This document shows, one piece after another, positions 3,012 through 6,000 of a stretch of DNA of 64,000 nucleotides (within the stretch, counting starts at the first letter, position 1; the number at the start of each line of letters is the position of its first letter). The position numbers were made by a program. The stretch lies in the NCBI RefSeq assembly GCF_055900595.2, contig NZ_CM148325.1. The stretch is one strand, 5' to 3'.

Positions 3012-6000
3012 GGAATGTTCATCTTGTGCTGCTGCACGGATGGGGACTGAATGCCAAAGTGTGGCGTTGCATTGATGAGGAACTTAGCTCGCATTTTACG
3101 CTGCATCTCGTTGATCTGCCCGGCTTCGGGCGCAGCCAGGGATTTGGTGCGATGTCACTTGCTGATATGGCTGAAGTCGTGCTGCGACAAGCGCCGGACA
3201 AAGCTATCTGGTTAGGCTGGAGTTTGGGCGGACTGGTGGCAAGCCAGATTGCGTTAACCCATCCCGAGCGGGTTCAGGCGCTGGTCACCGTGGCGTCGTC
3301 GCCATGTTTTAGTGCTCGTGACGATTGGCCGGGGATCAAACCGGACGTGCTGGCAGGTTTCCAGCAGCAACTCAGTGACGATTTTCAGCGCACGGTAGAA
3401 CGGTTCCTTGCGTTACAAACCATGGGTACAGAAACGGCACGCCAGGATGCGCGAGCGCTGAAGAAAACCGTTCTGGCGCTGCCGATGCCGAAGGTTGACG
3501 TGCTCAATGGTGGGCTGGAAATACTGAAAACGGTCGATCTCCGCCAGCCGCTGCAAAACGTGTCCATGCCGTTTTTGCGATTGTATGGCTATCTCGATGG
3601 TCTGGTGCCGCGCAAAGTGGTGCCGATGCTGGATAAACTCTGGCCACACAGCGAGTCGTACATCTTCGCCAAAGCGGCCCATGCGCCGTTTATTTCGCAT
3701 CCGGACGAGTTTTGTCACCTGCTGGTGGCGTTGAAGCAGAGGGTGTAGACAGCTGTTGAAATGGCGAGACAGAACTTTACTGGCTCGCCGCAGCCAACTC
3801 TTCTTCTGACAGCCCGGTAAAGCGCATGATGTCTGCAAGAGGGACTCCGGATTACAGCATTCTTTTGGCGATATCCAGGGCTTCCAGGCGTCGACCCAAT
3901 AAATAACCAATCAGGTAACTAATAAGATATTCTCTTTCTGCATCCGTCATTAAAACCATCCTTAACGTTATTGATGATTTATTTCAGCAAGGTCTTCAAC
4001 CGTCAGGCTGGTAAATCGCAGAACGTCCTCAAGAGAGACTCCGGCATCCAACATGGTTTTGGCAATATTTAGGGCGTTGGTACGTATACCTTTCTGAAAC
4101 CCCTCTTGCCGCAATCTTTCCGCAATAGTCATTAAACTCTCCTTGTGTTTCGGTGAACGTTCGGCCACACCATCGATAAAATCATTAAAACGTACTGCAT
4201 CGCCAGTTTGCAGTATGTAATTAAACAGCCCTTTGATTTGTCTGTCATTAGCGTATCCACTACTTAATAAGCAGGCCATTTGCTCTACCAGCCCCATCAG
4301 GTCGCGTTGACGTATATGTTTTTGGATTAACTCCAGCAGCGCCATACGTCGGTGCTGCATGATTTCATCATCAGGCATGACAGTGACATCAATCAGCGGG
4401 AATGCAGAGGCATAAAGCTGTCTGGCCAGTTTGGGATCGGCGAAACAATCCAGCCAACACAGTGAATAGGGATATGGGCTTTCAATGCCGTGGTAAAACA
4501 ACAATGGCACCACCATCGGCAACGTTTTGTATCCGGCATCCAGGTGATTTTGCATTGCGGCAATGGCGTAACGCATCATGCGAAATGCGATCAGTTTGTT
4601 TGAGGTGCTTTGATGTTCAATCAGACAATAGATATATCCCGGTCCTTGTTCCGTTTTCACCGACCACAGCACGTCGGAATAGCTTTCACGCAGATCGTCA
4701 TCAATAAAGCTGCTCGACTCCAGCTTGAGGGTTTTCATATCACAGAGCGCGTGAATAGGTGCCGGTAAATGGAACGCAAGAAAATCGCGCGCCGTCTCCG
4801 GTTGGCGTAAAAAGAGTTTGAACAGCGCATCGTGTGGGGTGGAACTCTGCTTTTTGCTCATGGCGTTCCTTCACCTGTTGTTTGAATGCCGCGACTCTAC
4901 GCGCCACTCCACACCTGTGCATTAGCGAGTTTTCATCCCTGCGAGACGCTTTCAGAGGAACTTACGTTGTACTGCAAGAGTTGCATTATTATGGAAAGCC
5001 GCACGCAAAAAAGCCCGGTTGCAAACGCATACCGGGCTTTCAAAACAGGCAGTAAAACAAGGTTAACGTAACGCCCACCACTCACGCAGACAGGCTTTGC
5101 CTTCCGGGCAGCTTTTACAACTGCCAGAGAGGCAGCCGTCAGGTTCTTCCTGAATCCGCACGGCTTTGCCCATACTTTCCAGCTGTTGCAGCATGGCGTT
5201 AATCATGGGTTGCGGAGTGTTCAATGTCTGGCTTATCTGGGCCGCTTCCATACGGCCCCGTAATGCCAGCAAATCACGCACCTGAATGAGCGAAGCCATT
5301 GCTGTATCCTTAGTGGCAATCGCCAGTGGTGCTGGCTGCACAGCAACTGCTTACCGATTTGCGTGTTGCCAGCAGTTCGATATCGACCCGGCTACGCGCG
5401 CGACGCAGCAAACCGATAACCACGATGTTAAACAGGATAACCGCCAGAATGCATACCAGGCTGTAGGTTGGATGCTGGCTGTAGCTGGCGACCTGGTAGA
5501 ACAATGTTGCCAACGAGTAAGCGATATTCAGCCCCCACAGGATGGAGAAGCCCATCCAGCCACGGCTGGATTCACGCGCGATAGCACCCATCACCGAGAT
5601 ACACGGTACATACAGCAGAACGAAAATCAGGTAGCTGTAAGCAGCTGCTGCGCTTCCAAATTTCTGATCCATCACGCCCATCGCTCCGGTACCCATTTCA
5701 CCGTCGCCTTTGCTCGCTTCAATGGGGTTCATCAGTACGCTAAGACTGAAGGTGTCTTTCAGGCTCTGCCAGGTTTCATCTACCGCGCTGAATAGCTCTT
5801 CACCGAGGTTAAATTCCGCCGGATTGAACTCTTCGTCCTGAATATTTTCTGCGGTGTAGAGGGTGTTGAGCGTACCCACCACCACTTCTTTCGCCATTGC
5901 GCCTGTAAACAGGCCAACAGTTGCCTGCCAGTTATCTTCATGTACGCCAATCGGCTTGAAGACCGGGGTGATCACCCGGCTGACGGAAGCCAGCGCCGAG

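Follow-up and report, generated by a model that had tools for sequence, protein, structure and literature searches.

An intact chromosomal rpnA of the two-tail type in Escherichia coli, followed by a truncated second tail copy that is probably a leftover

We analyzed rpnA (yhgA) and its surroundings in a 64,000-nt stretch of contig NZ_CM148325.1 from RefSeq assembly GCF_055900595.2 (the window). The minus-strand ORF at 3968..4861 begins with ATG and encodes a 297-aa protein, RpnA-L. Against NCBIfam it scores 675.8 bits for NF007361, the RpnA equivalog (cutoff 583), and 177.9 for TIGR01784 (cutoff 52.1). Residues 8–209 (4235..4840, minus strand, Pfam envelope) form the PD-(D/E)XK nuclease domain and match PF04754, Transposase_31 (E=1.4e-91, 306 bits, cutoff 21); the identical sequence in strain Z0117EC0005 bears the name rpnA in RefSeq. 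Residue-by-residue comparison with K-12 RpnA reveals a single substitution, D22E, within residues 1–254. The K-12 protein is a toxic, Mg2+-dependent, Ca2+-stimulated DNA endonuclease that induces the SOS response, and phenotypes were reported for mutants in D11, D63, E82, Q84, R94 and D165 (Kingston 2017), all of which are unchanged here. The preliminary description of this DNA, which placed an intact rpnA at exactly these positions beside feoABC and proposed an alignment of the catalytic residues as a check, is borne out in these respects: the reading frame is uninterrupted, and every PD-(D/E)XK residue tested by mutation is present, with no loss.

As in K-12, the gene occupies the slot between feoC and bioH. 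Upstream, on the same strand, lie feoC (5063..5299, minus strand, recognized by PF09012 and the RefSeq annotation), feoB (5310–7643, minus strand) and feoA (7648–7875, minus strand), whereas on the downstream side bioH (2978..3748, plus strand) is convergent with rpnA; in MG1655, the rpnA-bioH pair is included in the list of convergent excludons. Following feoC, a minus-strand hairpin at 5004..5041 with a predicted folding energy of -26.3 kcal/mol (z=-4.3) and a subsequent UUUUUU run is likely to be an intrinsic terminator that parts feoABC from rpnA; the consensus scan missed it because its loop is long. The consensus scan of positions 3650–5150 yielded zero sigma-70-like promoters, so the promoters assumed here for rpnA and, inside it, for rpnA-S are those known from K-12, and an Rfam search over 3000–5600 returned only chance-level matches. 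The position of rpnA between feoC and bioH is the same in 5424 of the 5426 complete E. coli genomes, with a median of one place per genome. We discarded the idea that rpnA has undergone extra divergence in this strain: on either side, bioH, feoC and feoB depart from typical E. coli to the same degree (92–96%).

The 3' part of rpnA encompasses a second, in-frame coding region, rpnA-S (3968..4132, minus strand), that starts at M244 and encodes 54 amino acids; these are at once the antitoxin encoded within the gene and the RpnA-L tail domain. Its Shine-Dalgarno sequence, AAGGAG at 4139–4144 (minus strand), falls on codons K240/E241, and its ATG is at 4130–4132; K240, E241 and M244 are all conserved with respect to K-12, where, as described in Zhong 2023, mutation of this site abolishes RpnA-S production and dRNA-seq located a transcription start site for the short rpnA-S transcript. 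Over residues 244–293 the tail matches the RpnA-S structure (PDB 7TH0) at E=2.5e-9; compared with K-12, it carries four inserted residues. The Pfam family PF27070 (HTH_Rpn_C) is on record for 297-aa orthologues of RpnA; a Pfam release predating this family, run on the tails, produced only sub-threshold noise because HTH_Rpn_C is newer than the release used. Taken at the sequence level, the three-helix tail encoded here is a homologue of RpnA-S, with the internal start kept. The preliminary description was silent on this intragenic antitoxin, the central known mechanism of rpnA.

According to Zhong 2023, rpnA of K-12 is a gene-within-gene toxin-antitoxin system in which RpnA-S, made from M244, binds the RpnA-L tail by way of helix 1 in an L2S2 complex and blocks DNA cleavage. 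From the near-identity of the two proteins, we infer that this mechanism applies to the allele in the window. Free RpnA-L would then act as a toxic, non-specific PD-(D/E)XK DNA endonuclease, and the internal start at M244 would yield, in the same frame, the small tail protein RpnA-S. Pairing of RpnA-S with the RpnA-L tail through helix 1 would produce an L2S2 complex in which DNA cleavage is blocked. If a phage, or conditions such as high pH, relieved this inhibition, the proposed outcome is DNA damage and an aborted infection. With the nuclease and the internally started RpnA-S encoded in one frame, a single gene would therefore serve as both toxin and antitoxin.

Compared with K-12 RpnA, for which biochemical and structural data exist (Kingston 2017; Zhong 2023; PDB 7TH0), the gene shows no difference in chromosomal slot, catalytic residues, M244 or the ribosome-binding site ahead of M244, but the tail after residue 254 represents a different allele, with 54 aa here and 49 aa in K-12. 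Helix 1 contains one more 4-residue unit here, and the two tails are 49% identical (alignment A2); in the same alignment, the tails of different strains vary in length in steps of 4 or 8 residues. Furthermore, K-12 lacks a second tail gene, and its single tail resembles a fusion that joins the 5' end of copy 1, that is, the expressed tail of the two-tail allele, to the 3' part of copy 2.

Alignment with a K-12-like allele (L001) delimits the extra DNA to a 207-bp block at 3893..4099 (minus strand), which is missing from K-12-type alleles. Within it, a 17-nt spacer that carries a ribosome-binding site links the remainder of tail copy 1 to the 5' part of copy 2. The block is found in 853–897 of the 5426 complete E. 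coli genomes, always single and always at rpnA; a distant-mode search for another rpn paralogue as a donor found the block nowhere else in any E. coli genome. The ribosome-binding site of copy 2, AAGGA at 3959..3963 (minus strand), is located 8 nt before an ATG at 3950, and AAGGAGAGTTT-AATGAC aligns with AAGGATGGTTTTAATGAC, making the ribosome-binding site and ATG of copy 2 homologous to the internal start of copy 1. From this ATG, a stand-alone second tail gene of 32 codons, the rpnA-Ss remnant (3852..3950, minus strand), extends to a TAA at 3852–3854. An ORF listing gives the alternative 3852..3959 (35 aa, start at 3959), but the start is more probably the ATG at 3950, with a 32-aa product. 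The tail-like small ORF that the preliminary description had reported after rpnA is accordingly real under either choice of start, but it is not an intact tail gene, being stopped by the TAA at codon 33: copy 2 forms a separate ORF just after rpnA and has translation signals of its own, a ribosome-binding site and an ATG, but it encodes an incomplete tail domain.

Helix 1 of copy 2 contains, by alignment, three 12-nt units encoding the 4-aa repeats YLIS, YLIG and YLLG (3894..3929, minus strand), which were not reported by Tandem Repeats Finder. These units are hydrophobic, in contrast to the usual Rpn units, which combine one hydrophobic residue with charged residues or glycine (Zhong 2023). 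Downstream of the TAA, an untranslated in-frame remainder (3777..3851, minus strand) would encode SGVPLADIMRFTGLSEEELAAASQ followed by a stop, almost the same sequence as that with which the K-12 RpnA tail ends (helices 2–3). This close match of the 3' part to the tail of K-12 rpnA indicates that copy 2 derives from its own upstream rpnA.

Intact, 57-aa orthologues of copy 2 exist in E. ruysiae, cryptic-clade strains and E. whittamii, in the arrangement feoC-rpnA-X-bioH; HTH_Rpn_C is on record for them in Pfam, and their codon 33 specifies Q or E. An AlphaFold2 model of the intact form (pLDDT 89) consists of helices at residues 3–33, 38–45 and 49–55, and its best PDB match is 7TH0. Given the TAA at codon 33 and these modelled helix boundaries, the 32-aa product would therefore comprise helix 1 only. 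The stop is common to all sampled two-copy E. coli genomes: a 41-mer containing the TAA is present in 827 E. coli genomes, and the same 41-mer with CAA in 0. A scan of outgroups with a degenerate internal-start pattern, one genome per species, retrieved three loci (Phytobacter, E. whittamii and Citrobacter koseri), a count obtained with a pattern that is too strict, missing even UTI89, which has AAC for AGT.

The organization of copy 2 is reminiscent of rpnE-Ss (ypaA) and rpnC-Ss, described in Zhong 2023 as small genes directly 3' of an rpn gene that repeat its tail, have their own start and are self-derived; unlike these genes, rpnA-Ss here is interrupted by a nonsense codon and encodes helix 1 only. 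A copy of the rpnA-Ss type is not mentioned in the available part of the Zhong 2023 main text, and our search of the literature from 2023 on retrieved nothing on Rpn beyond that paper and its commentary.

Substitution counts, which are small throughout (0–6 substitutions per comparison), differ among the parts of the locus. The N-terminal part of rpnA has pN 0.003 against pS 0.12, and the copy 1 tail has pN 0, whereas copy 2 shows pN/pS from ~0.3 to >1 over few sites. The tails of K-12 and O145 are chimeras of copy 1 and copy 2: each begins like copy 1 and continues like copy 2, with a different breakpoint in each. Further tail recombinants are the alleles P0010, P0013 and L019, and the number of repeats varies in both copies (L008/L009; P0026, in which copy 2 has a fourth unit). 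Because the K-12 and O145 tails are such chimeras, copy 2 can be viewed as a past recombination partner of the expressed tail, and the overall pattern suggests that it is what remains of a duplicated tail and is decaying, rather than a working gene. Altogether, with a rough probability of 0.85, we interpret the locus as the already characterized chromosomal rpnA of E. coli, a core toxin-antitoxin gene that is intact here in a two-tail allele, with the second tail copy as a leftover.

Two observations sit uneasily with simple decay. The 32-codon ORF, together with its ribosome-binding site, persists on thousands of contigs; three variants each occur as exact matches on at least 1000 contigs, and the 32-aa sequence is annotated there as a hypothetical protein. 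The untranslated remainder of copy 2, for its part, has kept its frame and changed little. A function of the short peptide, or a mutation of recent date, would be equally compatible with both observations. It appears unlikely that the truncated copy is something other than junk, kept in ~15% of E. coli either as a silent recombination partner that re-assorts tail specificity or as a free dimerization helix modulating the balance between RpnA-L and RpnA-S; if it were, rpnA would be a small, self-diversifying toxin-antitoxin locus.

The first of these possibilities, that the silent copy is a maintained cassette whose recombination with the expressed tail would generate new tail specificities, is drawn by analogy with the silent cassettes of antigenic variation and with Rhs and CdiA polymorphic-toxin loci. 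In the latter, displaced "orphan" C-terminal modules, silent or truncated, can recombine with the expressed module. The likeness to these loci, which is an analogy only, lies in a variable C-terminal module followed by a silent or truncated alternative; the variable module of rpnA, however, is an antitoxin and oligomerization domain and not a toxin tip, and there is a single spare copy. The chimeric tails with at least two different breakpoints, the further recombinants and the variable repeat number in both copies are all consistent with such a cassette, as are the remark in Zhong 2023 that rpnSs genes can disappear when they fuse to the N-terminal domain and the suggestion made there that RpnL itself may favor these events. 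However, the second copy is deleted in every fusion seen, which therefore points to one-way loss rather than a reusable cassette; moreover, diverged duplicates are expected to recombine without selection, and none of the strains surveyed had three or more copies, with one place per genome. We consequently regard maintenance as a cassette as improbable.

The second possibility, that the 32-aa helix-1 peptide is a working product that, as a free dimerization helix, binds the tail of RpnA-L or RpnA-S and tunes the balance of toxin and antitoxin, acting as an additional antitoxin or, by titrating RpnA-S, as an anti-antitoxin, is likewise doubtful, and quite so. In its favor, the ORF is open and widely shared, with its own AAGGA site 8 nt ahead of the ATG; the TAA that defines its end is common to at least 827 E. 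coli genomes; the peptide corresponds to the helix at the dimer interface of RpnA-S; and RpnE-Ss (YpaA), which is also stand-alone, has documented expression (Zhong 2023). However, helix 1 of the peptide has five 4-residue units compared with three in the strain's own tail, and a single-unit mismatch in RpnC abolished neutralization (Zhong 2023). In addition, pN/pS in copy 2 is ~0.3 to >1 while copy 1 is without amino-acid change, and the 32-aa ORF has no RefSeq annotation.

The view that rpnA is the transposase of a mobile element, prompted by the family name of PF04754 ("Putative transposase, YhgA-like") and by a 424.7-bit match to NF007418 ("ISNCY family transposase"), has a negligible probability and is rejected because the position of the gene, present in single copy between feoC and bioH, is fixed, and furthermore the NF007418 match falls below the cutoff of 583 and, in the available part of Zhong 2023, rpn genes are described as lacking terminal inverted repeats and target duplications. 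The pair rpnA / rpnA-S is best annotated as a gene-within-gene toxin-antitoxin system, not as a transposase.

The chromosomal context also bears on the role of rpnA in defense. The neighborhood consists of housekeeping genes (feoABC, yhgF, greB, bioH, gntX and nfuA), and rpnA is not in a defense island. Neither RpnA nor the small ORF has a match in PADLOC-DB v2.0.0, a 2023 catalogue that may simply be without Rpn. The earlier designation of this locus as a defense-relevant spot is thus an extrapolation, at odds with these neighbors, the PADLOC result and the fixed position, and the locus should not be counted as a defense hotspot unless phage data support this. The accompanying statement that the Rpn family is linked to anti-phage activity goes back to the plasmid-borne RpnP2, not to chromosomal RpnA. 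RpnP2-LS belongs to the same family and has the same L/S architecture; in the portion of Zhong 2023 available to us, RpnP2 is the only Rpn with shown phage protection (~10-fold against T2 and T4; BASEL #40).

Given that rpnA is a characterized E. coli core gene, the discovery value of the locus is small: the gene is known, and the truncated rpnA-Ss copy is its sole uncatalogued detail. Nevertheless, the 32-aa "hypothetical protein" on thousands of Escherichia contigs, which RefSeq leaves without annotation, can now be interpreted as a truncated rpnA-Ss. The allele described here is common, being shared with UTI89, 536 and 042. Zhong 2023 raised the question of how Rpn tails diversify, and for this question the rpnA alleles offer a natural series, which includes two tails with an intact copy 2, two tails with a stopped copy 2, two different fused tails, and losses of the nuclease core.

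The minus-strand ORF at 3968..4861 in the ORF listing (297 aa, ATG start) is rpnA: its product scored 675.8 bits against the NCBIfam equivalog NF007361 'recombination-promoting nuclease RpnA' (cutoff 583), also matched the Rpn subfamily model TIGR01784, and aligned over residues 8–209 with Pfam PF04754 (Transposase_31, YhgA-like; E=1.4e-91). Upstream, on the rpnA strand, are feoC, feoB and feoA, and bioH lies downstream in convergent orientation, so that the placement of rpnA beside feoABC in the preliminary description was borne out at exactly these coordinates. Directly 3' of feoC, a strong hairpin followed by UUUUUU (5004-5041; fold -26.3 kcal/mol, z=-4.3) suggests that rpnA is probably not just a terminal member of the feo operon; a promoter scan of 3650-5150 found no consensus site. 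We put at about 85% the probability that this rpnA is an ordinary toxin-antitoxin gene, intact and present as a two-tail allele, whose second tail copy is a nonsense-stopped leftover that has served as a recombination partner.

Published work already covers the gene and its family, the way it acts, and the fact that tail copies can lie downstream. According to the accessible part of Zhong et al. 2023, rpn genes are genes-within-genes that produce the full-length, toxic, DNA-cleaving RpnL and, separately from an internal start, the small C-terminal tail RpnS, which binds RpnL and blocks cleavage; for RpnA, M244 is the internal start, its ribosome-binding site lies over K240/E241, and the complex is 2:2. 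The same source describes the tail as a three-helix bundle (PDB 7TH0, K-12 RpnA-S) with the long helix 1 as the dimer interface, differing among strains in four-residue units, and reports that a one-unit mismatch between the L and S forms of RpnC abolished neutralisation. On the minus strand of the window, AAGGAG is read at 4139-4144 and, with the K-12 comparison, the internal ATG (M244) at 4130-4132, and residues 244–293 matched 7TH0 with a four-residue insertion (E=2.5e-9). Given these signals and this match, the RpnL/RpnS toxin-antitoxin mechanism known from K-12 can be carried over to the window rpnA by homology.

Loss of catalytic residues had been proposed as the finding that would speak against an intact gene, and comparison with K-12 RpnA revealed no such loss. 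All six positions for which mutant phenotypes are reported were unchanged (D11, D63, E82, Q84, R94, D165), D22E being the sole difference in residues 1–254. In K-12 RpnA, D11A, D63A, E82A and Q84K abolished all three RpnA phenotypes, Q84A and R94A separated them, and D165A was hyperactive (Kingston et al. 2017). Most E. coli, though not all, have an intact gene: at least 80% of the nuclease-core DNA is kept in 4662 of 5426 complete genomes, and the remaining ~760 (~14%) carry deletions or insertions in the core. Examples are a 245-bp internal deletion (window-equivalent 4581-4825; L004), an in-frame internal deletion of 429 bp (4356-4784; L005) and an IS2 insertion in the core (L006); all three loci keep the rpnA start region and the tail-coding part, and such alleles would thus have lost the toxin and retained the antitoxin. 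In three E. whittamii loci, the nuclease part is absent or disrupted, and small tail genes still lie beside bioH (54 aa and 57 aa, or a single K-12-type tail); one of these loci (L024) has an IS605-family OrfB/TnpB gene upstream.

Relative to K-12-type alleles, alignment showed 207 extra bases in the window (3893-4099). On the minus strand, RLRQEG is followed by a differing 43-aa tail remainder and a stop, a 17-nt spacer containing AAGGA, and a second start that opens 32 codons before a TAA (copy 2, 3852-3950); in frame beyond this TAA lies SGVPLADIMRFTGLSEEELAAASQ, nearly identical to the K-12 tail end, and then a stop. Copy 2 aligns, at its ribosome-binding site and opening codons, with the internal start of the tail within rpnA (copy 1), which identifies copy 2 as a duplicated tail unit. 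The tail-like small ORF reported after rpnA is therefore present and tail-derived, but it is a truncated duplicate. It resembles the stand-alone rpnSs genes after rpnE (ypaA) and rpnC in Zhong et al. 2023, the available portion of whose main text describes none after rpnA.

A search with the read-through sequence recovered intact 57-aa copy 2 proteins carrying Pfam HTH_Rpn_C in E. ruysiae, E. whittamii and strains that bear the E. coli label but have E. ruysiae-like sequence; they occupy the feoC-rpnA-X-bioH slot seen in the window. Codon 33 is CAA (Q) in these E. ruysiae/E. whittamii-type copies and TAA in the window; the K-12 tail and one metagenomic contig have GAA (E) at this codon. An AlphaFold2 model of the intact protein (pLDDT 89; helices 3–33, 38–45 and 49–55) had RpnA-S 7TH0 as its best PDB match (E=5.4e-4, TM 0.84 on target), and the 32-aa product would, on this model, be helix 1 alone. 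A 41-mer centred on the TAA matched 827 complete E. coli genomes, and its CAA counterpart none. The two-tail allele is common: the 207-bp block occurs in 853–897 complete E. coli genomes, including UTI89, 536 and 042. The exact 32-aa sequence is present on at least 1000 contigs as a 'hypothetical protein', and the copy 2 site has no RefSeq annotation. We found no literature description of a downstream rpnSs at rpnA, truncated E. coli-wide and intact in sister species, which makes this an annotation-level addition.

Tails of other strains record exchange between the copies. In the K-12 tail the first 33 nt are copy-1-like, an EQSK unit of its own comes next, and the rest is copy-2-like; the O145 tail is copy-1-like up to VLRFT and copy-2-like beyond; at least two different copy 1/copy 2 fusions have thus occurred, corresponding to the fusion between N-terminal domain and rpnSs region that the accessible text of Zhong et al. 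2023 mentions. Further tail recombinants were found (variants P0010 and P0013, and locus L019). Maintenance of copy 2 as a cassette for such exchange is an unlikely explanation, as every fusion observed destroys the spare copy. O145 strains (locus of RM12275-C1) have a single chimeric tail, and their rpnA-bioH interval holds two inserted genes, one for an AbrB/MazE-type antitoxin and a frameshifted one for a PemK/MazF toxin.

Slightly less probable still is a functional helix-1 peptide from copy 2, whose helix 1 has five units, mismatched to the three in the strain's own tail. This helix includes three hydrophobic four-residue units (YLIS YLIG YLLG), and a four-unit variant exists; copy 1 differs by one unit in two loci (L008, L009). 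Selection figures are only indicative, being pairwise counts from few sites: pN was 0.003 and pS 0.12 for the N-terminal part of rpnA, copy 1 had no amino-acid changes with pS up to 0.13, and copy 2 had pN/pS of ~0.3 to >1, also among intact E. ruysiae-type copies. The tail helix 1 of a Phytobacter massiliensis Rpn homologue carries a long Q/G-rich run of four-residue units (GWHEGQQQGMIQGIEQGQKEGQQQG...) and is a strong case of the repeat expansion known from the Rpn family.

The position of rpnA is fixed at a single place in 5424 of 5426 complete E. coli genomes, which contradicts the very improbable reading of the gene as a transposase. The label 'defence-relevant spot' we regard as a family-level extrapolation: in the part of Zhong et al. 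2023 available, phage protection is demonstrated only for the plasmid paralogue RpnP2, PADLOC returned no match for RpnA or the small ORF, the neighbours are housekeeping genes, and the place is fixed. The window is 100% identical over 1401 bp around rpnA to E. coli Z0117EC0005, where RefSeq annotates rpnA. Over 3400-5400 (bioH, rpnA, feoC, end of feoB) it is 92–96% identical to typical E. coli (K-12-like, B2-type strain), and identity of at least 99% over 3700-5100 was found in only 8 of 5426 genomes; the strain, or this segment, is part of a divergent lineage.

Elsewhere in the window, three plus-strand genes (13683-16160) lie between envZ and pckA, which are adjacent in K-12. They encode a 428-aa SMI1/KNR4 (SUKH-1) protein (PF09346, E=1e-6) and two further proteins, of 176 aa and 214 aa, for which neither Pfam nor PADLOC gave a match. 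Immunity in polymorphic-toxin systems is a typical role of SUKH proteins, and this region may be the other defence-relevant spot meant in the preliminary description. Finally, the RefSeq annotation of the identical strain marks yhfW (phosphopentomutase; ~40785-42011, computed from RefSeq record coordinates) as a pseudogene that contains an internal stop.
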